Origin: Piedraia hortae CBS 480.64
Lineage: Eukaryota
Direction: 5' to 3'
DNA: 40,611 bases
NCBI GenBank assembly: GCA_010093745.1
Contig: MU006046.1
Span: 1 to 40,611 of the forward strand
The translations under genes were made by a program, and so were the position numbers. Numbering within the stretch: the stretch's first letter is position 1; each line of letters starts with the position of its first letter. Shown here in pieces: positions 2,579 through 40,611 of the stretch. Under the pieces are notes generated by a model. The model searched no databases. It worked only from the letters and a program-made list of their open reading frames with translations, and was not told the origin of the DNA.

Positions 2579-5500
2579 ATGCCCGGATGCTGGGTGTCCT
2601 TCAAAGCGATTTGTGAATCACTGGTCTCGAAATTACGACCTCACAAATCAAAAAAATCAAAAGATGCCACGCCAAAGGCTCCAGCTCCCGCCTCACGGCA
2701 TCTCCAAACTTTGCGGTCAAACAATACGCCGGTAGAGGTGTCGCGTCCCGATCCACAGCCCTCACAGCCTTCGCAGTCAGAAAGTGCGCCTGTGGAAGCT
2801 GAAGCTTCCACTTCACAGACCTCACAGCCTTCACAGCCAAGCAATGCACTTGCAGAGGCTTCAGCTTCTGTTCCGCAGCCTTCGCAGTCGAATAATGTGC
2901 CTGTAGATGCGTCCCCTCCCGCTTCACAACCATTGCAGCCTTCGCTGCCAAACAATGCACTTTCAGAGGCTTCAGCTTCTGTTCCGCAGCCTTCGCAGTC
3001 AAGCAATGTGCCTGTAGATGCGTCCCCTCCCGCTTCACAGCCGTCGCAACCATTGCAGCCAAACAGTATACCAGCGGAAGTGTTGGCATCTAGCCCACGG
3101 TCCTTGCAGCCCTTGCAGCCATCACAGCCAAACACTACGCTTGTAGAGGCTTCATCTGAGGAGGCAGCTTCGGGATATTCTTTTCCAGACCAGCGGCAGT
3201 TAAGATTAGATGCTTTTGCTAGCATTTCACCGGACAATCGCAAGCTTGTTGAGGAGCACGTCGATTTGAATAATGATCTTGACATTGACGCCGCCAAAGT
3301 CCAAGCCTTGAGAGGCGTGAATCAGAGAAAACGTACCCACCAATGGATGGACAAGATGAAAAAGATTTCCTCGCATATCATGAATTTTGCGTCGGTGTTT
3401 GATGTGGGGACTAATGTCCAACCGGAGGTGCTTAGCTTGCCGTGGGCTGGTATCCGGTCTGTCTTGATGGTAAGGAGTCGACATCATCATCTGCGATCCT
3501 GGTTGACACCATTCTTTAGGTGGCTCATGAGGCTCACAAGCAGAGCGAATCAATTTTGGGGGGTATCGTAACGGTGCTAGATACCAACACTCTCCTTTCC
3601 GCGTACTTTTCCATCTACGGTCAGGTCGGTGGAACGCCCAAAATTCAAGATAAAAGTATTTCCAAACTTTACCGTGATCTGTACAACAGTATCGTCAAAC
3701 TTTACGGTCTCATTCTGGTATTCTTGGCGCAATCCCGAGTCATATGCGACAAAAACCCGCTGAAACAAGCCATACGCTCTCTGACTGATCAAATCATACC
3801 AGATTTCAGGAATGAACACGACAGGATGCTGAAAACTGTTGAATACCATCGTCAAGTTGTGAATGACATGGTCTCAAAGGAGCAGCGGGCTTGGGTCGAG
3901 GAGCAGCTTAAGGCGTTGGAGAAGGCCCAAGCAGAGATCAATCAGGGAGTCAAGGGCGTTCGAAAATTTCTAGATCTTAGTGCTCTTCAATGCGCTGAGA
4001 AGGCGGCCTACGACTCGAGGGACTACAGTGGTGACAACCTGGATGGTGACTTTCAGTTGTGTCTAGAGGGTACCCGAGTCGATATCATAGAGACCATACG
4101 AAATTGGGCCACCACCGACAATGAGCAAAGGGTATTCTGGCTATCCGGGAAAGCTGGAACGGGTAAATCCACAATTGCTCGAACCGTTGCCCATAAATTG
4201 GCGGAACAGGGGTATTTGGTGGGCAGCTTCTTTTTCAAGCGCGGCGTCGGCGACAACCTGAGCAATGCTCCATATCTGTTTCCCACCCTTGCCCATCACA
4301 TGGCCGATTTGATACCTAGCATCGGCGACAGAATTGCTGACGTCTCTAGCCGTGCAAATTCAAAGGCCTTGAAAGAGCAGTTCGAGATGCTCATTGAGGG
4401 ACCGCTTTCAGGGTATAACACGGGGTCTGCAACCGATGTCAGGGCGATTGTCATCGATGCACTTGATGAATGCGACGCCAGAGAAGGTGTAGGGCAAGCC
4501 ATGAAATTTTGGCCGTTGCTTAGTGCTCATACCTCTATGAACCTGAGGGTATTCGTGACGAGTCGGTCGGACAATGCGATTTGGCGCAAGCTCGGCCAAT
4601 TGGATCCCAAGTATTTTCAGTACAGAAAGCTTGAAAACTGGCAATCGAGTACCATCAAGGATGACCTAAGACGGTATTGCGAGATTGAGCTGGAGAAGAT
4701 TCGCGAGGAGCGCAAGAATAATATGATTCCTGATAAACTAGGAAATGAATGGCCGGGAGAAGGTGTTGTCAACAGGCTGGTTGAGATATCTCAGCCACTA
4801 TTCATCGCGGCTTCAACAATCCTTAGGGGTGCAAGAAATGATCCAGCACGTCTTCAAGATCGAGTAAACGAGCTCAAATCTACCGGTACAGATGCGCTGG
4901 CCGCGATCTATCTGGACATTTTGAATCAAGCTGCTCTCGACGCCAAGTGGCCGAATTGTTTCGGCCAGGTCATCAAGCCACTCGCTCTTCTTCATTCTTC
5001 TCTCACCATTCCGGCACTTGAGGATCTCTTGGGAGGGAATGCTATGGTTGCTAAAGCTCTCAATCCCTTGAGTTCGGTAATCGACTTCCCGACTGGACAG
5101 GAGGTGGGAACAGGCTCTCGGGCCACGGTACGGATTTATCATGAATCCTTCCGAGACTTTCTGATGGCTTCCAATTCTAAGGACAAATCCCAGTTCTCCA
5201 TCGACAAAGGCGAGACCCACGGCATTCTCCTAACGAGATGTCTATATTTGCTCAAGAACAAGCTCGAACGCGACGTCTGCAAGCAGAAAGACCCAGCAAC
5301 AGAACGCAAAGGCGTACCCGCCGAGGATGTCGAGAAGCACATCCCAGAGTCCGTACAGTATGCCTGCCGCTACTGGACCAGCCATGCAGTCAAAAGCAAC
5401 AAGACACTCGAAGTTGTCGAAGCAGTGGATCATTTCTTGCGTGAAGGTTTCCTTTACTGGACAGAGACAATGGCGTGGCTGGACAAGCTTGGGGAAATGA

Positions 5501-7716
5501 TAATATGCCTGAAGCAGCTGCAAAAGGTCATCGACGTATGTATCGCTTCCGTTTCCGTCTGCCAAAAGCATGCCTAACCCTGCGCAGTCGAAATCTTCGC
5601 CCAAGCTACACGCCTTTGTCGCCGATGCTCTGAGATGGGTCCCAGCAAGTCGAGATATGATCAGCGATGCACCGCTTCAGACATATCTCTCAGCACTGGC
5701 TTTTGCGCCGAGCAACAGTATCGTACGAAACACCTTCTGGCATGAAGTGGAAGATTTCTTGCAAGTTTGGGCGCCAGTCGCGACTGATTGGGGCTTTGAG
5801 TTGCAAACCCTGAGGGGGCATACTGGAAGGATACTGTCGATAACGCCTTCAATCGACGGGAGACGGCTTGTCACCGTTGCCGAGGACAACACAGTGCGAC
5901 TATGGGATGTTGAAAGCGGCACCGAAGAAAAACGTACGGAAGTTGTAATAAGTGTGGTCCAAACGTCGTCAGTAGGTTATCTTCGCGACGCCGCTTCAGC
6001 GTTCCCTGAAAAAGACATTGTGGTCATTGCCGAGTTGACCGGAGGTTATTGGAGGTGGAACTTGGAAGACGACGCCAGGCCAATTAATATCAAACTGCCA
6101 GGCGTTGCAGCAAGCGTTTCCGTCTCTCCGAACGGCCGATATGCCGCTTGGGGCTTGGACACCGGCGAGATTTACATCTGGGACGCCGATGAGGACGCCG
6201 GACAGGTGCTCAAGGGTCATAAGTCTCGAGTGCGGTGCCTGCACTTCTCGTCGGATAGTGAGACGCTGGTGTCGGGATCCACAGACATCTGGAAATGGAG
6301 CCCACAAGCTGCGCATAAGATGGTATACCAAGTTGGTGCTGATATCGAGCGCATCGCCATTTCGCCAAACCGCAAGTTCGTTGTCTTTTGTGCTGGCACG
6401 AGAGTTGCGTATCGCTTGGAAAACAGCACGAAAGTTGTGTATCCCTTGGAAAACGGCACGATATCGGTGTTTCACTGCACCACCCACCAAGTGGACCAGA
6501 TCAAGCGAAATTCTCGTGTCTATTCTCTCATGGTTACGCCAGACAGCCAGAATATTTTGTTTTTTGACGGGTCTAGTCTTTTTCTCTACGACTTTCAAAC
6601 GCAACAAAAGCCGATGAAGCTGCGATTGCGAAGCGGCGTCACAGCCATGACATCATCGCCCGACGGGAAGACAATCTGGGCGGGGTATGAAAGTGGACAA
6701 ATTACACAGCTGGACCTGCATCTACTCTTGAAGAGCCCGCAGCATCGGGCTGGCGACACTGAAGTCGCACTGTCAACCGATGGACGATCACTCGCCTCAT
6801 TGACTCAGGGAAACCAGCTCAGCCTTTGGAACATTGAAACGCGAATATGCGAACGGCGGTTAACAGATCACAGGCTTCCGAAACCTGATTACCCCGGATC
6901 CTGATCTCATCGGACAGTCGTTTCGTGGTTGTTGCCTCCCTATACCAATCCTCGGACAAGGCGGTTTTGATTTGGGACACGGATGCAGATGAACTGAGAG
7001 AGTTAAAAGACAGACCGAGATATATTACTGCTCTTGCGTTATCCGCAGACAACAAAACACTCCTTTGCGGTTTGCGCGACGATCAGATACGGGCTATTGA
7101 TCTGGAACGTGGACTTTTGCGAGAAGAATTCCCCGGTCATACGGAACGGATCTGGGATATAGCGATTTCTCCAGATGGGCAGAACTTTGCATCGGCATCA
7201 GGCGATGACACAATAAGGATCTGGGGACCGAAGTCACAAAACCCGCAGGTACTGAGCTCTGAAAAAGAAATGTATGGGGCATGTTTCTCAGCAGACGGTC
7301 GGATGCTCTACACTCATGACTCCAAGGATTGCATATCTGAATGGGACATTGAAAAGGCGTGCATTGTGCGCACACTCGATCGGGGCTGTTATGGTGGTTC
7401 GATACTTATCGATGGTCGCGTCGTGTCGTCAACGTTCCTGCCTGTCGTGGACAGCTTAGTAGCCAACGAAGACAATCAGCCCCAAACGCAGACGGACTCT
7501 TCCGCCTCGACAAGCTCAACTTCGATGTTCCAAGACCGACAAATCTGCGCCTTGGACGATACACATCCTTGGATCACTGTCAATGGTCGGAAGATGTTAA
7601 ACCCCCACGGCCAGCTGCGACATTATGGTTGGTTCTCGTGCGGACGAACAATGGTTTTCTCCAACGAAGAGACTGGTTTTACTGTTTTATATTTTACGGG
7701 CAAAGTCTCCTTCTGA
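2579..7716 (+). CDS. NACHT-WD40 NLR (HET-E/NWD-like), copy A; apparent 1-nt frameshift at ~6892-6895
   Basis: Walker A GKAGTGKST, 'GSFFFKRG', Walker B IVIDALDEC, 'VFVTSR', 'IYHESFRDFL', 'YACRYW', and WD40 repeats (GH..WD). Introns 3470-3519 (GTAAGG..TTGAC..TAG) and 5536-5587 (GTATGT..CTAAC..CAG) join the ORFs in frame. Start is 2579, or the in-frame ATG at 2525. Confidence 0.9.
2720..3150 (+). repeat. Coding tandem repeats (P/S/Q-rich) in the NLR N-terminus
   Basis: About 8 units of 17-20 aa, N-x-(P/L)-(V/A)-(E/D)-A-S..QPSQPSQ. A higher-order 111-bp duplication spans ~2843-2953 / 2954-3064. Confidence 0.9.
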
Positions 7717-9071
7717 ATAAAACTGAACCTGTTCAAATTTCCAACGGTCCCGATTCCTTTACTGAGCGATACAGTCAGTCTGTGCTGCTAAATTTGTAGC
7801 TTTTTCTTGAGCCTGCCATGAAAGCTTCCATAGGGAGAAGCAATGCAATTCACGATATGGTCATCGCCGCCAGACCATATGAAGAAGGGCCTTGTTGAAT
7901 TCCTTTAGAGGCAGATGCCAGTACTCAGCCGCGTCGTGCTGTGGATGTCTCCACGCTCTGTGGTGGTGTTGGGTGCGCCGGGATTCCATGTGCATTTGCC
8001 ATGATCGGCATCTGCGCAAGAACTTGGAGGGATATATGGTCATGTGTTTTGGCTGAAATTCTGAAGGGAAGCACTGGGAGTGAAGGAACCGCCGCTCATC
8101 CCAACGCGATCGAATGATCTTCCTGCTGCAAGCGAACGTGCAAAACGGCGGTCCTAATCATGACCTTATACTCATGGCGCATTGATCGGCGCCGCCATAC
8201 TTTATGGTGCAGGAGCCATGGACTGCGTTCGACAGATCCAGCCAGGCATTTCTCACCAAAACCCACCCCGACTATGCCATATTCTTGCCTCTTGGCGAGG
8301 AACATCTCAAACCGAGGGCCGCGACCTACATTCTCAAACCGTCAGGCTTGAGTGGAATGCAGAATGCCCCCAGGGCCTCGCGGGACATCGTCTGGGTCAA
8401 AGCGTTGGGGCACAGCGGCTCGCTGGACGCGGTTAATGTGTACCGGCACGCTGGCACGCGCGCCCCAGATTGCATCCACCAGCTACAGGCTCCAATTGGC
8501 ACCTTCCCTTCGAGAATCGTCATGACAGGCGATTTCAACCTGCGCTCGAGGCTGTGGGAGCCAGGAGCCAGCAAAACCGCTGGGGCACAGCTTTCGCACA
8601 TTAGACGCAGGATAACGACCTCGCCCTGTGCAACACACCTGGAGTTCCTACTCACAACAGAGGTCACACGATAGATCTGGTGTTTTCGAATATCCCACGG
8701 ACCAGGACCGAAGTGGCACCCCACCTGCACAGCACGTCTGACCACGAGAGGCTACTCACCAGGGTCCCCTGCGGAGGCGAGAACGAAAGCCACGCGAAAC
8801 GATCTAGATGCGTCTACAGAGACGGCGACGATGAGGCTCTCAGGGAAGCGTATCCCATCCGCCCGCTACCCGAGGTGACACCCGAACCTGGTTCCATCGA
8901 CGAGCTGGCCACTGCTCTCATAAGCAACATCAAAAGCGCCATGGAAGCGTCGCTACCGAAGAGTAACCCACGGGCGAGGCGCGCCTTGGCGGAACCAGGA
9001 GTGCAAAAATCCCCTAGTGGACTACAAAACACCTCCGAGGGCGAGAGACCCGGGCAGTGCAATAGATGGCA
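4354..9071 (+). repeat. Inverted segmental duplication, arm A (NLR 3' part + spacer + LINE 5' part)
   Basis: Colinear with the reverse complement of 35966-40611. 4354-4448 is identical to the window end, so homology probably extends further outside the window. Confidence 0.95.
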
Positions 9072-11978
9072 AGAAAGTTTTACGAGCCGCAGTGAGACGT
9101 TCCAAGCAACAATTCTGGACCAGACAGATTGGAATTGCGACAGGACAGAGCACCCCTGGAAGGTAGCTGGCTGGCGTAAGCCCAAGCGCCAAGCGGGTTG
9201 CCCTCCAATACAGGACGGTGAGTTCAGTGCAACCACTCCAGCTGAAAAATGTGCGCTCCTCAAGGTCGCGCACTCTCGAGCGAAGATTCCCCGCCGACGA
9301 TGTTCAGGCATGGGATACACCGTCTGTACCCTGTCGGTCTGTCCCCCTTGAGTCGGAAGTCGCTGCGGCCGAGGTCCGGCAGGCCACCATCGGCAGTTGT
9401 GGAAACACGGCTCCGAGAGAGGATGGCATCACGGTAGAAGTCCTGACTGCGCTCTGGGACAAGCTGGAGGAGGGTGTCACTATATTGTTCCAAGCTTCGC
9501 TGAAAACCGGGCACTCTCCCAAGCCCTGCAAAACCGCCGAGGCCGTCATGCTGCCGAAGCCTAACAAAGATCCAAGGACCCCAAAGGGCTGGCGCCCGAT
9601 ATCTTCCTTCTCAAGTCTGAGCAAAGGCCTGGGAGGACTGCTCGCCAAAAGGCTGGCCTTCCTCGCGATTGACCAAAGAGTCCTGCACGAGCAACAATTC
9701 GGCGCGCTCCCAAAGCGGTTCGCTGTGGACTTGGTAGCATGTGCCGTTCACGACGTTGATAAGACACGCAGCGCCAACCAAGAAGCATCCTTCCCTACGC
9801 TAGACGGACGAGGGGCATTCGACTGTGTTCTCGCAGGAAGATTGCAACGGAGTCTGAGAAAACTAGGCTGGCCCGCCTTTTTCGTCAACTGGACCGGATC
9901 CTTTATGACCGAAAGGACATGCAGAGTGCGTCTGCACGGGCATACGGCATAATCAGCTCCCTTGCAATGCGGATTGCCTCAAGGCTCCCCTATATCCCCT
10001 ATCCTATTCCTCCTTTATGTTCAGCCGATAGTTGACAGACGGTGCAGTACCAGCTACGCGGACGGAATCGGAATCCTCACCACCAGCCATGACATCACCC
10101 AGGCCACAGAGCTGCTGAGAGCTGGAAGACGAGGAAATTCAATCCTGGTGTGACGAAAATGCCATCACTCTTGACCCGGGCAAGGTGGAACTGATCCACT
10201 TCTGGCGGAAGCGCGTGCTCCAGTCGCCGTCGATCGTTATCGGCGGAAGGGAGATTCAGCCCACCGATTCTCTGAGCTGGCTATGAGTGTGGCTAGACCC
10301 AGCACTGACCTTCGAGCACCACATCGAAACGTGGGCAGCAAAGGCTACCAAGGCCGGGCACTTTCTCCGCTCCCTCTCAAACACACAGAGAGAAATCCCC
10401 CCAGCTAAAGCTCGACTGGCAGTCACGACATGCGTGCTCCCACTCCTCTCATGTGGCGTGGAAGCCTACTGGCCGGGCCTCGCCCGGAGCATCGGCGATC
10501 CCCAGGTCGGGACAGGCATGAAAACCCAAGTTGCGAAATTGGATAGAGCCCTCCGCCCCTCACTCCGAGCCATCGTACCCTGTTGAAAAACCACCCCATC
10601 CAGTGCACTAACCAGAGAGGCAGGACTGATGGCCATGCACATACACCTCGGAAGTCGATGCGCCATCTTCGCCGCGCGCCTATGCTCGCTCGACTCGTAC
10701 CGCCCGCTAGCTCGCAGAACCCACAGCTCAAACTAATCTTCGCCATCTCGCCTGGCCAGAACCACGGCTCTCGTCCCACCTTGCCCGAGACCTCTCTTAC
10801 ACCCGAGCCCTCCCCCCTTCCACAAGTCAAGACCTTCGAGCCGAATTCGACCCCTCATCCCTCCCATTCCTAAATAAAAGCAGTCCCAAAGTCATTCTCG
10901 CGTTCACAGATGGCTCGAGACGTGAAGAGGGCAGAACGGGATACAGGTTCATCGTATACCAGGGCGGCCACAGAGTCGCGACCGAGGCGAAACCTCTGAG
11001 TGCTCAGTGCAAAGTGTATGACGCAGAGGTAGAGGGCGCTCTGGCCGCTCTGCATGCCATTATGGACCGTGCCTGCACGCATCTGGCCGACAATGCTCTC
11101 CTCCTACTCGACAACCAGGCAGCGGCAGACTGCCTCGGGGACCTTGCGACTCCCTCCGACATCAGTCAAGCCTCAACCCTGGAGTTCCGTAACCTCGCCG
11201 AAAGATGGCTGTCACTCGAAAGGATGGCATTCGTCCAACCCGGCAAAATCCAGATACACTGGCTGCCGGGACACTCAGGCATAGCAGGGAATGAGGTAAC
11301 TGACTCTCTGGCTAAAGCAGGAGCGGCGAGACGCCCCAGTCGAAGGCCAGGCCTCAGAAATCTTCACTCTCTCACATTAGGCGCATTGCTCGGGCATCGC
11401 ACGCGGACCCTTGCGAGCATGGTGGGCAGGGAATGCACCTAGGTCATACCATGACCTCGCAATTGGTATCTCGACCAAGCCGCCGAAGGAACTACAACTC
11501 TCTCGCCCCGTCCTATCTCATCTTGTTGCGTGCAAAACCGGTTACGGCGACTTCGCAGACTATCATAACCGCTTCGATCACCCCGATGCGCTCCGGAACT
11601 GCTCCTGCGGCGCCATTAAGACGCCGACTCGCTTTTTCTTCTGCGAGGAGGGCCGTAGGCATTTAGGGGCTCTGAGATGCTCAGACCCCCGTCTGGGCGT
11701 TTCGTGGATTCTTTCAACTGCGGACGAAGCTCAGGCCTTCCGGCTTTTACTGAAGCACACCAACTTCCTCAACTCTGTATGCCCACAGCGCCAGCTGCAA
11801 AGTCAAGACGAGACGGTCGGCCGGGACGCATAGGAAGACACGGAGAATATTAATTTCTTGAAATGACAGATGAGACCGGTTAGGTAGCTTATACACTGAC
11901 CGCGGGTTTTAACCCCGCCGTCTAGCGCCCCATAGGGACTTATATAGATGTAAAATGCAACCAAAGGAGAAAAAAAAG
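8110..11978 (+). mobile_element. Degenerate Tad1/CgT1-like LINE, ORF2 region (APE endonuclease, RT, RNase H, CCHC)
   Basis: Endonuclease motifs LQANV, QEPW, NVYR, GDFN, SDH. RT motifs WRPIS, QFGALP, GAFD, GLPQGSPISPILFLLY, YADG. RNase H motifs YDAE, DNQAA, WLPGHSGIAGNEVTD. C-terminal CSCG, A-rich tail near 11960-11978. Many stops and frameshifts; no clear ORF1. Confidence 0.9.
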
Positions 11979-12989
11979 TCACGCAGTTTCGCCCACCTTC
12001 TTCCCGAGAATTTTTTTTTATCGACTATCAAGTTAAAGAGAGCTCGAGGGGTGTAAGAGGGAAGGTGTGGCGGTGAGACAAACGGGAAGATGATCAGATG
12101 GACAAATTTCTACAAATGTCCTCCCAATGCAACGACTACATCTATATCTAAGCCGGCCTTTGTCTAAGACCAGGCCAGAGAGCACCAGAGCTATCACAAA
12201 ACCATCTTGGCATAAAATGCATGCCAAACACGGAACCCGTGTCACATCGTTTCCCTTAGCTCTGGGCGATAAAAGTAGCAGAGTAGAGCACAGCGAACAC
12301 GGTGAAGTGAAGACTGCAGACAAGTCTTTCAAGGAAAGTAAAGATCCTGGCGAAGTGAATACTGTCTTGGAAACATCAGTCTCTGTAGAAGATGATATCG
12401 ATACAGCCAAGGGAAGATATCAAGCATATATTGAAAATAACGCAAACGAGTCGAGTTTGGAGGATGCTCGCCAAATACATGCAGCAGGAAAGCCGATCAG
12501 CGGAATGTGCCCCGAAGAAAAAATTTGAAATCGCTACCCCGCCCAATGAGAAGCCTATCATACTCAACAAGGCAGTCCAAAGCGCTCATGGGGCTGCGGG
12601 GCAGGGGCATGCACAAAGGTGAATACCAAGAAAGGAGCCCAACTCGAAAATGATGCGACATCTGTGGAAAGCACCTCGGAAGACGATGCCGCGCCTGTGC
12701 TGGACTCATCAGATTTGGCAGCACGACGGGACGCGATGATATTACTAGGTAAAGGCGATCCAGATCTAAAACCATCAATTCAATTACCACACGCAAGAAG
12801 CTATCAGAAGGTAGGAAAAATCCAAAAGCATCAGGATATGTGGGAGGAGACATGTCTGAGGGTGGCGCAACTGGTGTCGACTTCGTTGCCAGAATGAACG
12901 TCATTTAAAGATACTACTTCCAGGAGCCAGAGAAGGCCTGGGCGCAGGTTCGACGGGAGGGGCGGGTCGTGTCGGTGGAGTTGTGGGAG

Positions 12990-14000
12990 CTCATGCTAGG
13001 CGACCGTGAGGGCCAACGGCGTAGTGGTATGCTGGTACAAATTTTCCCCAAATGGCGATAGTCGAGCCTATATCGTAAGCCGATGCAGAGCAAAGCTCGA
13101 TTCTGCAAGGGAAACCAAGGCGCCACCAAGACAGGAAGGAACGCCCTCAGACGAAACAATGGTAATCACCGGCAAACTCCGGAACCGACATATAAATCTC
13201 AACCTCATGATCGATCACGGGTTCGAGAGGGACCGTTGGTACACCATCATGGGGTACTGCGGCAGCGGTGACCCGGCAGATCCGCATTTCCTCTACCAGT
13301 TCCATCGAAACCCCGAGGCCAATACTCTTCCTTAACCATTTTATGGCATCCATGGCGTCAGCCTTGGTTTTCTTACACGATGGCATCAAAGATATCAGCC
13401 GCCCTCATGAAAAGGTTCCAGATCATGAGGCCCTGATTCATGGAGACTGTTGGCATGAAGTCTCGTTGCTATCAGTGTACGATGCCACTGCGCGACACCT
13501 CTTACACCAGCAGCTGCACCCTAGGTTTTGTCCTCACAGAGGTTTCCCTCAGGGTCATGTCGCATGCGACATGGTGAATGCGCCCTGCTACTGTTATGAG
13601 GTGAGTCATGGAGTAAGACTGCATGCTGACAGTCTTACTGCATGTATGACCACTTGCTTATGGTCATACAATTGATGACTCTTCATACGAGGCTACGCAC
13701 GGGCCTTCCAGCCCAGAATATATTCTCTGATGTTCCCTCGAAGATATACTTGTATTCACTCATAAAAACACATCTCTACTTTCCATCCATCGTTCTCACT
13801 CATACATACTATCTTTCTTTTTCAGAGACATCAAGCCAGAAACCATCTTCCTGCATTGGGATCACCCGTGCGATGTGCTCCTGCTCTTTCAAATGATAGG
13901 CAAAAAACTTTCGACTGCAATATTTTCTCAGCGATTTAGGAGGTTGCAAATTTTCCGACACCGGATCTATGTACGACGCCCCTGGGGGTTGTTTCTTCCC
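12990..14000 (+). pseudogene. Protein kinase pseudogene interrupted by a solo LTR
   Basis: 'YTIMGYCGSGD' (hinge) and 'HFMASMASALVFLHDG..ALIHGD'. After the LTR the frame resumes 'IKPETIFLHW' (catalytic loop HxDIKPxNI), later 'LGVV'. The charged ORF fragments at 12127-12900 may be its N-terminal extension. Confidence 0.75.
13448..13824 (+). mobile_element. Solo LTR (377 bp) with 5-bp TSD GAGAC
   Basis: Begins TGTTGG, ends CA. GAGAC at 13443-13447 and 13825-13829. Removing it restores the kinase catalytic loop. Similar to sequences starting at 29924 and 30451. Confidence 0.85.
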
Positions 14001-18791: not shown

Positions 18792-18797
18792 TATAAA
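18792..18797 (+). promoter_or_regulatory. Putative TATA box
   Basis: TATAAA about 40 nt upstream of a strong-context start CACCATGG (ATG 18835). Confidence 0.4.
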
Positions 18798-18834
18798 TGC
18801 GCCCCCCATCCACCCTCGAGATTTAAACCCCACC

Positions 18835-19848: not shown

Positions 19849-19882
19849 TTCACAAACGACGTACATAACGAAGAATCATCCA

Positions 19883-23053: not shown

Positions 23054-23057
23054 CCCA

Positions 23058-24152: not shown

Positions 24153-24330
24153 TGTTCGACGATGTTGTATTGATGCTGGGGGGGTTAGGGAGGGTCTCCG
24201 GACTTTAATGAGGGGTCGAGGTGGGGTCGAGCTCGGTTCATCGGAGAATTGTGAAGATCAGAGAACAGCTGTGACCTATCATATTGGATGTAACATTCGT
24301 AGGACTGCGTAAACTACCGGATGTGAGAAA

Positions 24331-29770: not shown

Positions 29771-29923
29771 GTCAGCTCAGCGAGCGCTGGATGAGCTGGG
29801 CTGTGGCTTTTCGAAGTGAATTCACGCACAACGATGTTAGACTGTCTCTATCACAACCTTCCGACGCTCTACAGGGAATCGACGAAGGTGCGGTGTGAAA
29901 CTGAGGTGGTTTGAGGTATCTTT

Positions 29924-30445
29924 TGTTGGAGTCAAGCATCGCCGCTACCGCGTACGCGAGACACTTGCACAGCAAGTCAGCTAAACCCCTACACTACGGC
30001 TGCACCCTAGTTTTTCCCCTCCCAGAGATTTCCCTTCAGGGTTATGTCAGATGTGACTTGGCGAACGCGCCCCGCTACTGTAGACTAGTGAGTTATAGAT
30101 GACTCATTGTTATATTTGTGAGTAGGTGTGTACCAGTATGCATACAAGTCTCTACGGACAACGGGTTGAGTCGAGCGCCGATTACTGATAATGCGCATAA
30201 TATACCGCATATTCGCAACACTCCTATGATAACATGACGTCACTGGCCCACCAGTACAGAATACCTATTCCGACGTTCCCTATAGAGATACAGACACACA
30301 CATAGTAATTCACACTATCACATCGACACTTGTATTGACTCCTATCCACCTGCATCTTTTCTATCCCCGTCGTTGATTTCCGTCTATCGCTACATCCTAG
30401 TTCGGGCCGCTACGCACTCCCATCCACGAGAGTAATATTGCTACA
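29924..30445 (+). mobile_element. Solo LTR with 5-bp TSD TCTTT
   Basis: TGTTGG...CTACA, with TCTTT at 29919-29923 and 30446-30450. Colinear similarity to the 13448 LTR (GCTGCACCCTAG, GCTACTGT, GTTCCCT, ACTTGTATT). Confidence 0.7.
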
Positions 30446-30450
30446 TCTTT

Positions 30451-31480
30451 TGTTGGCATGAAGTCTCGTTACTATGAGCACGTGGCATGCACCGCAGGGG
30501 TTCTCTAGGCTTTCTCCCATATGAAGTTTCCCCTATGGATCACGATCACACTGTCAGAAGGATGTGGCATCAACCATGACCAGAACTGTAGATAGAAGTC
30601 GTAACTTCTAAGGGTTTTTACCTCTATAGAGAAAGTTTTCCCTGAGACGGGTCATTGTCTCGTTCATGCTTAAGGGCATGGTTCGCTGACGTTGTCCTGG
30701 CGTATGCGGTTAGACTGAGGTAGTGTGGGGGAAGGCTTCGGACCTCACCTCACATAGAGATAGACATCTAGATTCAACTTTCGGTCAAAGTTAAGTGAAA
30801 ACACTAGTCGTTGATATCCGCTCAACTTTAGTCCTCGGAGGTTCACCACTCCGATACACGCTTGTATCGTGGCGAACACGCTCCCAAATGACTATTTAGT
30901 ATCGGAAGGAGGGAGGGACCTACTCACATCACTTCGAGATTGGTGAATGGTGACGCAGACAACAGTGTGTGTGATACCTCACTATGGAATCCATCCGAGG
31001 TCTGGAGAAGGCTTGCACCGCAAGACTGGCCTAGACTCTCTTCCCGGCCCGAACCGCATTCGCCGTGACAACGTCCTTTAATGTAACCACGCTCCAGAGG
31101 GAAACATCCTCCATGAGGTAAAAACCCTTGAGAGTCCGGTGTTCTATTGTCAGAACTCAGGGCCTACGTCCTGCGGAAGGGCCCGGTCCGTCCGCGGCCT
31201 GAGTCTAGGGGCCCCACTCTGCGGCACATACACAAGCGGCACTGACTTTTCTCTTCTCGTCTTCATGCGTTGTTCTCTGTCTACATAGGGTCTACGCAGT
31301 ACTTTCGTCCATAGTCCATTGCTTTGAGCCTCTTACCGTTGTATCTCATCGATCTTTCAACCCCGACCCTCGTCCTTAGCCTCGTGTCATGATACATATC
31401 TATCTAAGGCAGGCGTCTGACACATAGGTATTGTCGCGGTCCATGGTTCGTTGGGTTAAGACCTGCTGGATGTCATGCAA
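30451..31480. mobile_element. Nest of LTR fragments in both orientations
   Basis: 30451 starts with the same 20 nt as the 13448 LTR (TGTTGGCATGAAGTCTCGTT). ~31085-31147 is a diverged reverse complement of ~30590-30655. 31148-31422 is bounded by TGTCAGA...TCTGACA. Confidence 0.6.
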
Positions 31481-32130
31481 GGGTCCCTGTCGCTGCAGCG
31501 CCGATCATGTCGGTGAGATGCAGGATCTATTTCCAATCCCTTTATTTTATCCTAGAGGTCCCCATGGAGCTAATTAACTGAGATTGGAACTGCGATTCCA
31601 CGCTGTTCTCACACTAACTCTCATTTTCCATTTGTGCACATAACGCTACGCACCGAACAGCACACACAGAGACTTCAGAGAATTAGGCTCAATTAGGCAG
31701 CGCGCTAGGGATCGGCCCTACTTCTTGTTGAATATTGTCGAATGACGTCCCAAGCGGATCGGGCCGGTATAGGCCGGGAGATGACCACACCTCCTCAACC
31801 TTGTTGACAATACACTTTTAGTTAGTCACAACTCTATTAACTCCCATCTCTTAGGTTATTACTTCTCTATGAGAACGAGATTTGGATATGACATCTCACC
31901 TTGGTAGCCGCCTAACGATAGTGAAACAACCGGCTTCGGTCCATTCAGTAATAGCTCTACGTTGTACCTGAACTCAGGAAAAGGTCTATGGTATAATTTG
32001 AGGATTTTGAGGATTGCACGCCGCATTGACCTTCCGTGCTTAACACCGCAAAACTAGGTCAAAAGCTTTTCGATATCCAAACGATCGGACTGACACATCA
32101 CCGTATATACACCAGTACAGAACCCTCAAG

Positions 32131-35100
32131 ATGCCTGATACGCTGTGCCACATCTGTCATAGAATTGGGACGGGCAAGTCAACCATGAAAATGCCGTACA
32201 GTAACGGGGTTCACTTTTTGACGGCAATGCATCAAAGGAACAAGAACAGCTTGAGACACGATCCGGAAGAGTACCAAGAGGCCTTGTATTTCGAAGAATC
32301 CGAGGATGCCGATGCTCGCATGAGACTGGTCCTGGAATCGCGAGCGCAGAACGCCAAAATCCTAGCTCGACAGGCCACAACTCAAGCCGCAAGCACTGTG
32401 AATCCGGCACCTTTCTGGAACATGAACGCCCAAGCATTATACAATGATTAGTTCGAGCTATGTATGGATGTTGACGACCAACCTGACGGGAGAGATGAAG
32501 ATCAAGAGGCGGAAGACGAAGACAATTGCAGTTACGATGAGTGACTGGGATTCTGAAGACGACGATACTATCATTAGCGATGCCAGCGATGTTAGCGAGT
32601 CAACTCATGAGGACGAAGATGGCGAATTTCCGACTGGTAACTAGATGTTAGACGTCGAAATTTCAGTACCAATCGACCAAGAAATGCCCTGTTCTTGTCG
32701 TTTTACTCCGCCGGAAAACATCGATATGAGACTGCCTCGTAACCCATGGAACCCGTTTGCTTGCGAAGAAGATGCTCTTCTGTTTGCAATGTACCATTCG
32801 CATCGTCATCCTATCAGTGATACTCCGATGAAAACCTTTTTAAAAGTGGTGAAGGAGCTTGCAAAGATCCCAACCAGACTCAAAGTACCCTCATTGGGAA
32901 AACTGAAGAAGTATCGTAAAATCATTCCCAAACCTCAGGTGGTTCGTCGCAAGACCGAAGATGGAGCACCATTTTTATCAGATTAGTGTGCTTGACATTG
33001 TACGCATGCAAACATGTAGGAACATACAGAAGTCGTCCAGTATCCCGATGTGGTAGAGCAAGTGGCAACCTCGACTGATGGGCCTGCTTCGAAAAGTTGT
33101 TCCGAGATGTGGCACGGTACCAAGTGGCATTAGGAGCTACGTATGCAGCGACCTATGGAGATTACCTGGATCCAAGAGAGGCCAGTCAGTATTTGGCTTG
33201 GAGACGTTCTGCGGATAAGTCCATCTAGCTCGACCGAATACGCCTTGTATTACGGCCTGGAGACTCGCTCTAGCCCGTAGACACAGGATAACAAGACATA
33301 TCTTATTCGAGCGATTTCGCTGGTCTGTTAGAGCCGGTAAACGGGTGCACCCAAGGAAGCCGAAGTTCTCTATTCCTACCAAGGGCGGTATGTTGGAGGT
33401 GAGCGAGACGACCGTGGTATTCCTCGAAGAGACTCAAATTATGGATACCCTGGATAATGAAGATATTGAGTTTGTTTTGCAAGATGGCACGCCGCTCCAT
33501 GAGGACTTTGGTCCATTCCTGCGGACCCCATATCCGGCAAAGAAGTTCTACAAGAAGCATGACGCACGTGTTGTGCAGCTCAATGTCAGCTTTTGGCAGG
33601 ACAGGGTAAATGCGGCGCGAGGAGAGCGGTGGGATTCCCTGGAAGTGTGGACAACAAATTTGGCTGGCTTTTCACATAGGGTGAGTTTTGACTTTCAGTG
33701 CGAACAAATCATTGTAAGAACTGGACCCAATGTGCAATCTGGTCTAGCACAATTTCACGTATCTGCCAACTACTATGTTGCGGTTGGTGCCAAGATGAAG
33801 GCCACCAGTATGCTCCGTGGGTTGATGCCGGATCTGGTTCGGCCCCAGCGCGGCGTCCGGGCCTTCGGCTCGGGAAGTGGCCGCCCTGTGCTCATCTCTG
33901 GATGTGTCTGTCGGTTCATGGCCGATAATCCTGCCGCGGCGGCGCTTTGCTCGATCCATTGGACAGGAGGACAGCCTTGTCATGATTGCTACTGGCGCTG
34001 GACAGCAGTCAGTCAATGGAAGGACATTATCGATGTTTCCAGTCTGAGGGTGCTACGGCATACCAAAGGACTCTCGGCGAAGGAAGCCGATCTCGTTAGG
34101 ATAGAGCATCCTCGCACGGAGCTCTACCGACTCGAAGGGTTCGATCCACACCAGGATTATACTTACGAGATGCTCCATTCCCTCCTTCTGGGAGTGGTTA
34201 AATACCCGTGGTTGGACACGCTTAACCTCCCCGTAATCAAGGAAAAACTCTTGGCAGCTTGCAGTTCGTGCACATTCAGCCGGAAAGGACGGTTTTGCGA
34301 CATTACCCGCACCCGACAAATCGCCAATTGGAACAAGTCGTTCACAGGCGGCGATTTTCGAAACCTACTCTAGGTCTGGCCGCTAACCCTGATCGCATTT
34401 TTTACAGCCAAAGGTGGGCTTGCGGACGTTAATAATCTGATTCATTTGTGGTGCTTTGGAGGAAAGCTCAGCACGCTGCTCTACGCCACCAGCATCCGCG
34501 ACCTGCAGAAATGGTGTGATGCTGTTGAGGAAGCGAGTCGGGATCTGGTAGAGACCTGGTCAGACATATGGGGGCTTGATACCATCAGGAGGAAGACTAA
34601 ATTCAGCTTTTGTTCCATATGCCCGCAGGGACCTGGCGGCATGGGCCTGTTCTTGGAGGGACGACAGAGCGGCTGGAGAGTTTGAACAAGCCCCTTAGAC
34701 GCAATCTGGACCTCACCAACCGCCACGCCCCTGGTTTAGATCTCATGAATAAGTTTTCGGTCTTTCTGTCGGAACAGCACATCGTCCTTGAGGGCTGGTG
34801 GTGTGTGGACAACGAATATATGACACGAGCAGGGGATGAACTTCTCAACCTTTGTCAAGAGAAATGGATGAGGTCCATGATTGGCCTGCCAAATCCTAAG
34901 ATTTCCGGCCCTAAGACCCAACGCCTGCGCCATCAGCTTCCTGCAACGACCCAAGCCCCGCACAACAGGCTGGTCAGCACGTATGACCTGAGCTGGAGCC
35001 GAACGGTATATCGCCAATTCTCTAGATGTCTCGGATCTATATCATGTGGAGCGGGCTCCTTCGTGCAATGCTGGGAAAGTAGCACGATATTCCGCGTCAA

Positions 35101-35278
35101 CGCGCCCCTACAACAGGTTAAGACACCGCAGACGGCGATTGCCCTAGTTGAGGAGTTCCGGGCTGTGGCCCCCCAGAACGCCAACGAAGACATTTGTGCG
35201 TCGGTCAAAGTTCCCTTGCTTGCCTCGACACGAGGTTACAAAATCGTTTCGATAGAGGATCTGGGCCCGCATTCTTAA
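32131..35278 (+). mobile_element. Degenerate CACTA/EnSpm (CMC, Plavaka-related) transposase
   Basis: 'SEMWHGTKW', 'SFWQD..RWD..NLAG', 'MADNPAAAALCS..CHDC', 'FDPHQDYTYEMLHSLLLGVVKY', 'KTKF..FHMP..RHGP..TERLESLN'. These resemble fungal CMC-type transposase motifs from memory. Multiple stops and frameshifts. Confidence 0.65.
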
Positions 35279-35566
35279 TGTCATGCATTTGTTTGGCGAG
35301 GGGTGTGACGTGAAGCAGGTTCTCACCACTTAACGAAAGGAAAGGCAGATGGCCCCAGTTGATGTATGGCAGCATGAGGCAGAGAGCGTGTCTAGCCGCT
35401 GGAGGGTCGATGTCCATATGCTTAATTTGCATAGCTGATAGGCAGGCCAAGCGTGACAGGATTTCTCCACCACCGCGTGGCTTTTGACAGTTTTGATTCA
35501 TTTTGCACATGTTGATGAAATGTCCCTTATTATGTAGTTTCAGAACCAGGTAGTTCAGGTCCACGC

Positions 35567-35940
35567 TGTGACGGTCTCGATCTTGTCACTTGATTACTTT
35601 CCCCGGTTTCTCAGTTGTGATATTCCAATGCGGAGCATCTGATAAATGTCGGATTTCAGCCTGCAAACTTGTCCAGTGACAGGCTTGTGCCAAGCAACAT
35701 GTCACAATCTGCCTTAGGATCCCACAAATTTCAGACCGTGATAGCCTGAAAAGAATACTCTGTGACATCCTGATTGCAAATACCACAGGATTCAGGCCAT
35801 GACAGCCTGGAAAACAACGCCCTGTGACATCCTGATCTCAGGTCTCCTGGAACTCAGACTGTGACAGCCTGAAAACATGACCCTATGGTACCCTGATTTT
35901 AGGCATCAGGCGGTGGCAGCCTGATGCGGGATTGGCTGTG
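35567..35940. repeat. Subterminal repeat array and probable right terminus of the CACTA-like element
   Basis: About 10 spaced copies of a TGTGACA(G/T)CCTGA-like motif, ending in GGCTGTG (reverse complement CACAGCC, a CAC-type terminus) at 35940. Confidence 0.6.
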
Positions 35941-35965
35941 AATGTCCGTCCAGACGCACTCTGCA

Positions 35966-36950
35966 TGCCACCTATTGCTCTGTCCGGGTCTCCCGCCCTC
36001 AGCGGTGTTTTGTAGTCCACTAGGGGATTTTTGCACTCCTGGTTCCACCAAGGCGTACCTCGCCTCGCCCGTGGGTTCCTCTTCGGTAGCGACGCTTCCA
36101 TGGCACTTTTGATGTTGTTGATGAGAGAAGTGGCCAGCTCGTCGATGAAACCAGGTTCGGGTGTCACCTCGAATAGCGGGCGGATGGCATACGCTTCCCT
36201 GAGAGCCTCTTCGTCGCCGTCTCTGTAGACGCATCTAGATCGTTTCGCGTGGCTTTCGTTCTCGCCTCCGCAGGGGACCCTGGTGAATAGCGTCTCGTGG
36301 TCAGTCGTGCTGTGCAGGTGGGGTGCCACTTCGGTCCTGGTTCCTGGGACATTCGAAAACACCAGGTCTATCGTGCGGCTTCTGTTGTGAGTAGGGAATT
36401 CAGGTGTGTTGCACAGAGCGAGGTCGTTATCCTGCGTCCAATCTGCGAAAAGCTGTGCCTCAGCGGTGTTGCTGGCTCCGGGCTCCCACAGCCTCGAGCA
36501 CAGGTTGAAATCGCCTGCCATGAGAATTCTCGAGGGGAAGGTGCCAGTTGGAGACTGTAGCTGGTGGATGCAATCTGGGGCGCGCGTGCCAGCGTGCCGG
36601 TACACATTAGCCATGTCCAGCGAGCCGCTGTGCCCCAACGCTTTGACCCGGAAGATGTCCCGCGAGGGCCTGGGGGCACTCTGCAATCCACTCAAGCTTG
36701 ACGGTTTGAGAATGTAGGTCGCGGCCCTCGGTTTGAGATGTTCCTCGCCAAGAGCCAGTAATAGGGCATAGTCGGGGTGGTTTTGGTGAGAAATGCCTGG
36801 CTGGATCTGTCGAACACAGTCCATGGCTCCTGCACCGTAAAGTATGGCGGCGCCGATCAATGCGCCATGAGAGAGTATAAGGTCATGATTAGGACTGCCG
36901 TTTTGCACGTTCGCTTGCAGCAGGAAGATTATTCGACCGCGTTGGGATGA
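35966..36950 (-). mobile_element. LINE 5' fragment (endonuclease region), duplicate of 8110-9071
   Basis: NVYR, AGDFN, PTHNR..IDLVFSN, TDH, PWWNQEC. Reverse-complement match to copy A, truncated at ~35966. Confidence 0.9.
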
Positions 36951-37309
36951 GCGGCGGTTCCTTAACCCCCAGTGCTTCCCTTCAGAATTTCAGCCAAAAC
37001 ACATGACCATAAATCCCTCGATCATGGGAAATGCACATGAAATCCCTGGGCGCCCAACACCACCACAGAGCGTGGAGACATCCACAGCACGACGCGACTG
37101 AAGACTGGCGTCTGCCTCTGGAGGGACTCAACAAGGCCCTTCCTCATATGGTCTGGCGGCGGTGACCATATCGTGAATTGCACCGGTTCTCCCTATGGAA
37201 ACATTTACGGCAGGTTCAAGAAAGAGCTACAAATGTAGCGACACGGACCGACTGTATCGCTCAGTAAAGGGATCGGGACCGTTGGAAATTTGAACAAATT
37301 CAGATTCAT

Positions 37310-40300
37310 TCAGAAGGGGGCTTTGCCCGTAAAATGTAAAGCAGTAAAACCAGTCTCTATGTTGGGAACAACCATCGTTCGCCCGCACGAGAACCAACCA
37401 TAGGCTTGCAGCTGACCAGAGCGTTTGAACATCTTCCGACCATTGACAGTGATCCACTTTTCTGTAAGGTCCAAGGCGCAGATTTGTCGGCCTTGGAACA
37501 TCGACATCGATCTTGTCGAGGCGAAAGAGTCCGCCTGCGTTTGGGGCTGGCCAGCTTCGTTGGCTGCTAAGCTGTCCACGACAGGCAGGAACGTTGACGA
37601 CACGACGCGACCATCGATAAGTATCGAACCATCTTCAGGGCCCCGATCGAGTGTGCGCACAATGCACGCCTTTTCAATGTCCCATTCAGATATGCCATCC
37701 TTGGAGTCATGAGTGTAGAGCATCCGACCGTCTGCTGAGAAACATGCCTCATACGCAAAATGTTTAGAGCTCAGTACCAGCGGGGTTTGCGACTTCGGTC
37801 CCCAGATCCTTACTGTCTTGTCGTATGATGCCGATGCAAAGTTCTGCCTATCTGGAGAAATCGCTATGGCGGAGATCTTTCTCCTATGACCGGGGAATCT
37901 TTCTCGCAGAAGTCCACGTTCCAGATCAATAGCCCATATCTGACCGTCGGGCAAACCGCAAAGGAGTGTTTTGTTGTCTGCGGATAACGCAAGAGCGGTA
38001 TCATGGCCCGGTCTGCCCTTTAGCTCTCTCAAAACATTTGCTTCCATGTCCCAAACCAACACCACTTCTTCCGGGGATCAGCTTAAGGAGGCAACAACCA
38101 CGAAACGACTGTCCGATGAGATCAGGATCTGGCAGTGGTCAGGTTTCGAAAGCCTGTCATTTGTTAACTGCCGTTCGCAAATTCGCGTTTCGATGTTCCA
38201 AAGGCTGAGCTGGTTTCCCTGAGTCAATGAGGCGAGTGACCGTCCATTTGTTGACAGTGCAACCTTAGCGTAGCCAGTCCGATGCTGCGGGCTCTTCAAG
38301 ACTAGATCCACGTCCAGCTGTGCAATTTGTCCAACACCATCCCCCGCCCAGATTGTCTTCCCGTCGCGCGATGATGTCATGGCTGTGATTCCACTGGTTT
38401 CCAAGGGCAGTTTCATCGGCTCTTGTTGCGTTTGAAAGTCGTAGAGATTAAGACTATTCCAGTCACCAAAAAGAACTTTCTGGCTGTCTGGCGTAGCCAT
38501 GGGACATCTGGTGGAATGAAATGTGCTTCCTCGTACGATCTGCTCAACTTGGTGGGTGGTGCAGTGAAACACCGATATCGTGTCATCCTCAGACCCAAAG
38601 ACAACGAACTTGCCGTTAGGCGACATGGCAATCTGCCTGATAGCAGTACCAAGTTGGCATATCCTCTTGTTCCCAGCTTGTGGGCTCCATTTCCAGATGT
38701 CTGTGGATCCCGACAACAGCGTCTCACTATCCGACGAGAAGTGCAGGCACCGCACTCGAGACTTATGACCCTTGAGCACCTGTCCGGCGTCCTCATCGGC
38801 GTCCCAGATGTAAATCTCGCCGGTGTCCAAGCCCCAAGCGGCATATCGCCCGTTCGGAGAGACGGAAACGCTGTGTGCAAAGTCTGGCAGTTTGAGATCA
38901 ATCCGTCTGGCGTCGTCTTCCAAGTTCCACCTCCAATAAACTCCGGACGACGCGGCAATGACCACAATGTCTTCTCTGGGGAACGCTGAGGCGGCGCGAT
39001 AATAAATGTCAATTTCCGTACGTTTTTCTTCGGTGCCGCTTTCAACATCCCATAGTCGCACTGTCTTGTCCCATCCAACGGTGACAAGCCGTCTCCCGTC
39101 GATTGAAGGCGCTATCGACAGTATTTGATCAGTATGCCCCTTCAGGGTTTGCAACTCAAAGCCCCAATCAGTCGCGACTGACCGCAAAACTTGCAAAAAC
39201 TCTTCCATCTCACTTCTGAAGGTATTTCGCACAACACTGTTGCTCGGCGCAAAAGCCAGTGCTGAGAGATATGTCTGAAGGTGTATCGCCGATCAGGTTT
39301 CGGTTTGCTGGTACCCATCTTAGCGCATCGGCGACAAAGGCGTGTAGCTTGGGCGAAGATTTCGACTGCGCAGGGTTAGGCATACTTTTGGCAGACTGAA
39401 ACGGAAGCGATACATACGTCGATGGCCTTTTGCAGCTGCTTTAGGCATATTATCATTTCCCCAAGCTTGTCCAGCCACGCCATTGTCTCTGTCCAGTAAA
39501 GGAAACCTTCACGCAAGAAATGATCCACTGCTTCGACAACTTCGAGTGTCTTGTTGCTTTTGACTGCATGGCTGGTCCAGAAGCGGCAGGCATACTGTAC
39601 GGACTCTGGGATGTGCTTCTCGACATCCTCGGCGGACACACCTTCGCGTTCCGTTGCTGCATCTTTCAGCTTGCACACGTCGCGGCCGAGCTTGTTCTTG
39701 AGCAAATCTAGACATCTCGTTAGGAGAATGCCGTGGGTCTCGCCTTTGTCGATGGAGAACTGGGATTTGTCCTTAGAATTGGAAGCCATCAGAAAGTCTC
39801 GGAAGGATTCATGATAAATCCGTACCGTGGCCCGAGAGCCTGTTCTCGCCTCCTTTCCGGTCGGGAAGTCGATTACCGAACTCAAGGGTTTGAGAGCATT
39901 CGGAACAACCATGTTATCTCCTTCCCCCAGCAAATCCGTCAGCGCCGGAATGGTGAGTGGGGAATGCAGAAGCGCGATTGGTTTGATAACTTGACTGAAC
40001 CATTGAAGCCACTCGTTGTCGAAATCAGCGGCTTGTTTCAGAATACCAGAGTAAATCACGGTCAGTGTATCCGTTCCAGTGAATTTGAGCCGTTCGACCC
40101 ACTCTTGAAGCCGCTTTCGTGGATTGTTGCTCACTTCCCTGAATATCGTAGATGCCGCGATGAACATTGGATTTGATATTTTCACAAGTTTGTTGACAAT
40201 GCCTTCTCCAGGCCAGTCATCCTCCAGCTCGTCATAGCTAGAACCCTTCCTGCTCTGCTCCCGAAGCTTTCTCAGTTCATCGTAACAAAACGACCTCAAG

Positions 40301-40611
40301 TCGCCTTCGATGGTACTCGATTGCCAGTTCTCAAGCCTCTCATGCCGGAGATCCTTGTGCTCCAACCCGCTTAGCTTGTCCCCGATCTTGTTGTCGGACC
40401 GGCTCGTCACAAAAACTCTTAGGTTCATGGAGCTTTGTGCACGAAGTCTTGGCCAAAGGGTCATCGCATGACCTATCGCTTCCCAGTCCTCGCACTCGTC
40501 GAGTGCATCGATAACGATCGCCCTGACATCGGTTGCAGACCCCGTGTTATACCCTGAAAGCGGTCCCTCAATGAGCATCTCGAACTGCTCTTTCAAGGCC
40601 TTTGAATTTGC
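37310..40611 (-). pseudogene. NACHT-WD40 NLR, copy B (5' part outside window), disrupted
   Basis: Paralog of copy A with the same intron (39366-39417). It has a 2-nt deletion at 39280/39281 and an in-frame TGA at 38078-38080 where copy A has CAA. Confidence 0.85.

Follow-up and report, generated by a model that had tools for sequence, protein, structure and literature searches.

The closest described counterparts of the locus reported here are the NWD/HNWD genes of Podospora anserina (het-e, het-d, het-r and nwd), a multigene family in which a NACHT NTPase is followed by WD40 repeats. WD sequence is exchanged between loci in that family (PMC2873952), where pseudogenes are frequent and an association with transposable elements is described (PMC2873952, PMC13449251). 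For fungal NOD-like receptors (NLRs) as a group, published work describes combinatorial domain assortment with birth-and-death evolution (PMC4986451) and an association of transposable elements with ectopic conversion (PMC13449251). A 2025 survey of Sordariales defines a fungal NLR cluster as NLRs lying within 40 kb of one another with fewer than eight genes between them (PMC12258605). Here we describe a 40,611-nt stretch of Piedraia hortae CBS 480.64 (the whole of contig MU006046.1 of assembly GCA_010093745.1, positions 1 to 40,611 of the forward strand; hereafter the window), which carries two NACHT-WD40 NLR genes arranged tail to tail in the arms of an inverted repeat. Among the papers listed by a literature search, none deals with Piedraia NLRs or with an invertible fungal NLR locus.

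We consider it likely that this locus is a decayed pair of NACHT-WD40 NLR paralogs and that two processes shaped it: copying at the DNA level, and ectopic gene conversion that recurred among family members. The locus would then document how an NLR cluster evolves by birth and death and exchanges modules, a reading that we also regard as probable; as it stands, the locus is an ordinary product of known processes. With two NLRs inside 40 kb and fewer than eight genes between them, it fits the published cluster definition, and its near-identical modules joined to different partners match the pattern called 'domain reassortment' by Dyrka et al. (2014; PMC4986451). In contrast to published reassortment, exchange here involves close paralogs of the same architecture, the breakpoints of module exchange can be placed within ~100 nt, and a fragment of a long interspersed nuclear element (LINE) travelled with the module. 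The locus also departs from Podospora HNWD genes. Tandem Repeats Finder (TRF), run on 2400-13000, reported no near-identical WD40-sized tandem arrays of the highly conserved kind, there is no signature of repeat-induced point mutation (RIP), exchange acts on whole gene segments rather than on single repeat units, and no HET domain was detected in the visible N-terminus. The locus is a clean, breakpoint-level example of module reshuffling in fungal NLR families: a single pair combines ~650 nt that derive from a different lineage, a patch of conversion where NACHT meets WD40, and a WD40 module that moved with a LINE fragment. It lends support to the published idea that ectopic recombination diversifies the NLR repertoires of fungi.

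The inverted repeat is present far above chance. A repeat search returned ten collinear inverted pairs (4354-8981 versus 36061-40611) with complementarity of 78-96%, and self-BLASTN returned three blocks with E-values of 0 to 1.7e-152, namely 4354-5945 versus 40611-39010 (84.4% identity, 1617 nt), 5989-6388 versus 38996-38597 (90.8%, 403 nt) and 6457-9071 versus 38582-35966 (88.3%, 2644 nt). Overall identity of the two arms is ~84-91% by self-BLASTN and alignment, and at least 4.7 kb of inverted paralogous sequence is visible. The end of the right arm at 40611 is that of the contig and not that of the homology; a 95-nt perfect match to 4354-4448 sits at this contig-end terminus. Inspection of the global alignment in 200-nt windows reveals identities between 65% and 98.5%, with 65-68% at 4554-4947, 94-98.5% at 5142-5541, 75-96% over WD40 and 91-96% in the LINE as far as ~8900, followed by collapse past 9071. 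In total, 583 substitutions, plus indels, separate the arms. The longest perfect matches between them measure 138, 137, 132 and 95 nt, and the 137- and 138-nt runs occupy 5108-5244 and 5373-5510, respectively.

Both genes carry the NACHT and WD40 domains of a fungal NACHT-WD40 NLR, a member of the signal transduction ATPases with numerous domains (STAND NTPases). Pfam assigns NPHP3_N/NACHT to 3520-5577 (+) on the left (NPHP3_N 2.8e-27, NACHT 1.1e-7) and to 39376-40611 (-) on the right (NPHP3_N 8.5e-7 for the part inside the contig). WD40 repeats (PF00400) follow at 5513-7716 (+) and 37310-39292 (-), with E-values of 2e-21 to 5e-12 in four open reading frame (ORF) pieces across both arms. By tblastn, both genes are collinear with paralogs of 1346-1511 aa down to the final residue of those paralogs; the 1511-aa paralog P0003 aligns with 3005-7713 of the left gene and, on the right, with the span between the contig end and 37313. 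Neither copy retains the intact reading frame of a working receptor. The left gene carries a 1-nt deletion near 6894 that leads to a stop at 6902-6904, and the right gene carries a 2-nt deletion near 39280 together with an in-frame TGA at 38078-38080, where the left gene has CAA. These lesions differ between the copies, and each copy therefore broke independently.

Less is visible of the N-termini. The left N-terminal ORF piece, 2495-3571, has no Pfam match, and the N-terminus of the right gene lies beyond the contig end; some paralogs carry the NWD N-terminal families PF17100 or PF24809 in precomputed annotation. Within left exon 1, a 111-nt tandem repeat (2.7 copies, 83% matches) at 2765-3065 encodes a low-complexity stretch rich in Ser, Pro and Gln that precedes the conserved N-terminal part.

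Pfam identifies LINE endonuclease in the ORFs 8186-8674 (+) on the left and 35883-36989 (-) on the right. On the left, the domains follow one another on one strand as Exo_endo_phos_2 (8186-8674), RVT_1 (9167-9952) and RNase_H (10711-11442), and the reverse transcriptase and RNase H are restricted to this copy. The left LINE is split over at least five reading frames and is therefore dead, and only its first ~1 kb falls inside the repeat. Homology between the arms is unbroken from the NLR stop codon (7714-7716) through a 360-nt 3' flank into the LINE. LINEs that insert by target-primed reverse transcription lose their 5' side when they are truncated. The right LINE is instead cut on its 3' side, exactly at 35966, while sharing the same upstream junction; retrotransposition could not have produced this form, which therefore implies DNA-level copying from a left-like source. 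No target-site duplication of the LINE was found: both junctions lack a common word of at least 7 nt, and the only candidate for a 3' tail is an A8 run near 11969.

These results bear out much of an earlier sequence-only reading of the window, which had described arms at 4354-9071 and 35966-40611, a NACHT-WD40 gene followed by the same LINE at the same position in each arm, disruption of both copies, and a near-identical tract between the NACHT and WD40 parts (~5110-5620; in the present alignment 94-98.5% identical over 5142-5541, with the two longest perfect runs). Its proposal that the duplication is later than the LINE insertion holds for the shared 3' part. Its description of the arms as reverse complements is accurate as regards collinear inverted homology; the arms are not close copies overall.

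Two P. hortae sequencing runs, here called X1 and X2, were compared as assembled short contigs with 1-20000, the left-arm side of the window, where contig depth serves as a rough measure of copy number only. An X2 contig joins 3468 to 3519 with GT..AG ends at the joint, X1 has no such joint, and exact X2 contigs cover 3079-3469 and 3519-3954. The X2 joint looks like a spliced transcript of the left pseudogene, the RNA status of X2 being itself a guess. Depth in X2 is 300-640 across 8005-12006, over the dead LINE, and drops to 5-11 just past 11977, which would fit NLR read-through or LINE transcription. One X1 contig follows the NLR 3' flank to 8077 and then runs into 75 nt absent from the window; it may represent a family member lacking the LINE and so mark the insertion point. 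The 3' end of the left LINE was set at a short A-run and at the position where an X2 contig stops. Outside the repeat, at 9339-12006, the LINE has single-copy depth in X1, and so close copies of it seem not to exist elsewhere.

Divergence between the arms is mosaic. The substitutions comprise 347 transitions and 236 transversions (transition/transversion ratio 1.47) with no CpA bias, so that RIP is ruled out as the source of the divergence and of the stop codons, and the spectrum appears ordinary. Proportions of synonymous (pS) and nonsynonymous (pN) differences were computed in 50-codon windows along the aligned arms. pS is 0.27 at 4354-4503, rises to 0.58-0.71 over 4504-4953 and is 0.42 at 4954-5103; in successive windows over 5104-5605 it is 0.00, 0.18 and 0.03. 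Over the WD40 part, pS is 0.01-0.29 with pN/pS near 1. Neutral divergence in the younger part is consistent across markers, at 10.8% at third positions of 5104-7713 (89/822), 10.3% in the 3' flank and 6.3% in the LINE. Matched third positions are clustered, a longest run of at least 64 occurring in 399 of 10,000 shuffles and a second-longest run of at least 59 in only 17 of 10,000. The tract at 5104-5605 is best interpreted as a gene-conversion patch. Separately, the WD40 window 7261-7410 has pN of 0.126 and pS of 0.008 between the arms, on small counts, which may be the trace of earlier diversifying selection at surface positions of the repeats or of a conversion patch.

Comparison with the wider family places this mosaic in context. 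In P. hortae, at least 31 annotated members were found, 21 of them long (1345-1550 aa) and ten shorter, four of the latter marked partial. Identity to left exon 2 is 46-70% for 19 of the 21 long members and only 31-32% for P0030 and P0031. The best matches in other fungi are only ~34% identical, and by this comparison the family appears species-specific to P. hortae. Neither in-window copy is among the annotated proteins. A family of this size nevertheless exists in a species whose assembly size (16.95 Mb) and predicted gene count (7,572) are the lowest among 101 surveyed Dothideomycetes genomes (PMC7082219).

Protein trees were built by segment for the left gene, the right gene and 19 paralogs with no rows dropped, segment A spanning 4504-5103 and segment B 5104-5535. 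In segment A, the left gene groups with P0003, P0004 and P0005, and the right gene is sister to P0009 in a different clade. In segment B the two genes are sisters (support 0.964), in segment C they are not, and in segment D left, right, P0007 and P0015 share one clade (0.979). Identity between left and right proteins across segments A to D is 0.61, 0.93, 0.78 and 0.77. Other family pairs show the same module-level patchwork, with near-identical modules joined to unlike partners: P0007 and P0015, both on one 331,972-nt contig, are 0.54 identical in A and 0.98 in C (the first WD40 part); P0003 and P0005 are 0.96 identical in A and 0.76 in C; and P0004 and P0006 are 0.88 identical in the N-terminal part and 0.37 in D. 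Contigs from outside the window match patches of the left arm at 95% or more and then run into non-window sequence (loose ends at 5113 and 8077). The contig with the loose end at 5113 suggests that the high-identity tract is probably common to further family members outside the window. Apparent joints from 6388/6390 to 6457 were rejected as rearrangements; they come instead from right-arm or paralog contigs and match an indel between the arms.

The anatomy of the arms points to the following as the likely order and direction of events. A LINE would have inserted ~360 nt downstream of the left gene, after which a segment extending from at least the NACHT/WD40 linker through the WD40 part and 3' flank to the first ~1 kb of the LINE would have been copied in inverted orientation, 27 kb away. 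This step may have been a whole-gene duplication that was later partly overwritten; alternatively, conversion over a long tract may have supplanted the 3' part of a paralog already in place. The copied stretch would then have diverged by ~6-11% at neutral sites. Later short conversions of a few hundred bases, both between the arms and from other paralogs, would have left the patches of near-identity, while a ~650-nt island in the NACHT region would have taken the sequence of another family lineage. Both copies would subsequently have gained their separate disabling mutations. Exchange would have proceeded through ordinary homologous repair, that is to say gene conversion and perhaps a rare crossover flipping the spacer, and would have involved no dedicated inversion system.

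Several points weigh against this history or loosen it. Because the 5' part of the right gene lies beyond the contig end, the two versions of the copying step are indistinguishable. In segments C and D, left and right are 0.77-0.78 identical to one another versus 0.79-0.82 for each to P0007 or P0010; being no closer to each other than to these paralogs in the WD40 part, they leave a shared duplication firmly established in just three places, namely segment B, 3' flank and LINE. Paralogs were compared as proteins only, so the donors of conversion tracts are not identifiable at the DNA level. The pN/pS ratio near 1 in the WD40 part fits decay, and it also fits diversifying selection before breakage. 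The frameshifts rest on one assembly; short-read contigs over the left arm showed no indel at 6894, which is not proof.

The sequence-only reading had gone further and proposed a possible recombinase-free invertible element, in which crossovers in the tract between NACHT and WD40 would repeatedly flip the 27-kb block and swap the WD40 sensor halves between two N-terminal/NACHT modules, diversifying the receptors in shufflon-like fashion. A tract of 94-98.5% identity does lie exactly between the two modules, the two genes are sisters within it, so the arms have interacted, and module-level exchange is common in the family. We nevertheless find this model extremely unlikely. With both genes broken, a swap joins pseudogene halves, and frame-breaking lesions in both WD40 parts mean that a flip would yield no alternative intact coding ends. 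Perfect identity extends over at most 138 nt in arms that differ by ~12%, and mismatch-repair suppression makes crossovers rare in diverged arms. Inversion cannot create uneven divergence, which gene conversion or partial copying can, and an outside contig that matches from 5113 onward shows the tract to occur beyond this pair. As the sequence-only reading had stated, no recombinase is visible: Pfam detected LINE endonuclease, reverse transcriptase and RNase H, and no recombinase or transposase domain beyond these, among 70 scanned ORFs out of the 104 that reach 100 aa; the other 34 overlap identified genes. A Starship or other giant transposon was rejected on the same scan, which contained no tyrosine recombinase or transposase domain. 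The resemblance to bacterial and plasmid shufflons is thus one of geometry only, inverted repeats surrounding a segment whose flip exchanges C-terminal coding parts; this eukaryotic chromosomal locus has no site-specific recombinase in the scanned ORFs, no short defined crossover sites and no intact alternative C-termini. Occasional homologous inversion is possible, and a shufflon-like system is unsupported. The idea that WD40 halves move between NACHT modules survives to the extent that modules have been exchanged at both loci and family-wide, while the inversion-based mechanism proposed for it is unsupported. The uneven divergence also bears on a simpler history, in which the whole NLR and LINE were duplicated once in inverted orientation and then drifted by neutral point mutation with no exchange among paralogs. 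Collinear homology over 4.7 kb, including the non-coding flank and the LINE, and the ordinary substitution spectrum are what such an event would leave; pS running from 0.00 to 0.71 along the gene, placement of left and right in different clades in segment A, and clustering of matched third positions beyond the shuffles render it very unlikely. An assembly artefact, with one arm arising by mis-joining or as the consensus of a single NLR entered twice, is scarcely credible. The contig does end inside the right NLR, family members are often at contig ends (as the partial shorter matches illustrate), and the family fragments the read graph into short contigs, yet 583 differences with indels and distinct lesions are not one sequence written twice, and parts of the left arm, as well as the start of the spacer, are matched by exact contigs from both runs.

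A different question is raised by the sequence outside the visible arms. In X1, depth is 27.6 for the exact contig on 1-467, 23.3 for that on 469-807 and 27.9 for that on 3584-3954, versus 10.8-13.7 for the five exact contigs between 4799 and 20000 (among them 4799-5137, 9551-10995, 11877-13475 and 13785-20000). Variant sites are sparse, about 20 being listed over 1682-4204, and 9551-20000 has none. On this contig depth, 1-4448 is probably present as two near-identical copies collapsed in the assembly. Together, the doubled depth, the variant sites and the 95-nt match at the contig end suggest that, past the contig end, the right arm goes on with sequence nearly identical to that of 4353-1 and beyond. 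One Logan contig extends 1,182 nt beyond the window start. Annotated proteins include no near-identical copy of the 5' half of the left gene (none above 67% identity among those of 376-1199 aa, none above 70% among longer ones), which neither demonstrates nor excludes a collapsed copy. Such arms would make the locus a passive substrate for non-allelic homologous recombination (NAHR), its spacer flipped at least once during the history of the species or polymorphic among isolates, mainly through the long near-identical outer arms and with no part played in receptor function. The hints of a second copy of 1-4448 and of at least 1.18 kb further left, the confinement of variant sites to that stretch, the termination of the contig inside a perfect match and the signs of repeated conversion between the arms all agree with this. 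As in inverted segmental duplications that mediate NAHR in human and other genomes, inverted paralogous arms with signs of conversion enclose unique genes; in contrast to those, the visible arms are ~88% identical with perfect matches no longer than 138 nt. Against it, contig depth indicates copy number only roughly, the second copy need not be the continuation of the right arm, no annotated protein of 376-1199 aa exceeds 67% identity to left exon 2, contigs within the left arm are short (longest listed 339-452 nt), and no read or contig bridges an arm. We therefore judge the passive-substrate explanation unlikely, while giving it some weight. A bolder version holds that the 4.7 kb visible in each arm form the older, inner portion of a much longer inverted repeat whose outer part, at least 5.6 kb, near-identical and collapsed in the assembly, comprises the upstream region, the N-terminal part and the first half of NACHT, and that the 36-kb interior with its housekeeping genes toggles by homologous recombination. 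This we regard as distinctly improbable. Were it true, orientation, as well as the NACHT-C/WD40 module behind each flank, would vary among isolates or even among the cells of a single culture, and an immune-receptor cluster of a eukaryote would possess a flip-flop that needs no recombinase. Should the near-identical outer repeat prove real, the locus would be well suited as a natural case for testing whether recombination drives inversion in a fungus. Decay of an NLR pair after DNA-level copying and repeated conversion remains the interpretation that we favor for the locus, whose features are collected in Table 1.

Table 1. Coordinates of the repeat arms, NLR pseudogenes, LINE copies, divergence tracts and spacer genes in the window.
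Feature	Position	Strand	Evidence or remark
Left arm of visible inverted repeat	4354..9071		Repeat search, self-BLASTN, alignment
Right arm of visible inverted repeat	35966..40611		Repeat search, self-BLASTN, alignment
Left NLR pseudogene (NACHT-WD40)	2495..7716	+	tblastn with P0003, Pfam, intron conservation, X2 joint, translations
Left NLR exon 1	Within ORF 2495-3468, start ATG not fixed	+	tblastn, translations
Left NLR intron 1	3469-3518	+	Keeps frame; X2 contig joins 3468 to 3519, GT..AG ends
Left NLR exon 2	3519-5535	+	tblastn
Left NLR intron 2	5536-5587	+	GTATGT..CTAAC..CAG, conserved in both arms
Left NLR exon 3	5588-7716, stop codon 7714-7716	+	tblastn, translation
Right NLR pseudogene, 5' part lost at contig end	37310..40611	-	tblastn, translation, alignment
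Right NLR intron 2	39366-39417	-	Alignment
Right NLR natural stop	37310-37312	-	Alignment
Left LINE	8078..11977	+	Pfam, ORF frames; 5' end from endonuclease domain start and X1 loose end at 8077
Right LINE fragment, endonuclease part only, 3' side cut at repeat boundary	35966..36966	-	BLASTN, Pfam, alignment
Divergent island, NACHT-associated region	4449..5103	+	65-82% nt identity, pS 0.42-0.71, different clades
High-identity tract, end of exon 2, intron 2 and start of exon 3	5104..5605	+	pS 0.00-0.18, perfect runs, sisters (0.964)
Candidate outer segment, upstream region and 5' half of left NLR	1..4448		X1 depth, variant sites, 95-nt terminal match
Spacer, 26,894 nt	9072..35965		Self-BLASTN boundaries; includes rest of left LINE
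Ataxin-10/CTR86 homolog, 950-aa ORF	14811-17660	-	Pfam; 96% identical to P. hortae ataxin-10-domain protein
Major facilitator superfamily (MFS) sugar transporter	19886-21370	-	Pfam
M24 aminopeptidase P	21681-23050	+	Pfam
2-Oxoglutarate-Fe(II) (2OG-Fe(II)) oxygenase	23061-24257	-	Pfam
BAR/PH protein	24334-26223	-	Pfam

Repeated sequence of other kinds occurs in the spacer. Adjoining the inner end of the right arm, 35700-35960 contains imperfect ~60-nt repeats on a 'caggatgtcacag...ttttcaggctgtca' motif, recognized by eye where TRF reports none. A short, very high-copy element occupies 13341-14007, with a summed X1 depth of ~1,737 versus ~12 in adjoining sequence and several indel variants. The stretch 13503-13594 has a direct copy, 82% identical, at 29990-30081, 16.5 kb away within the spacer.

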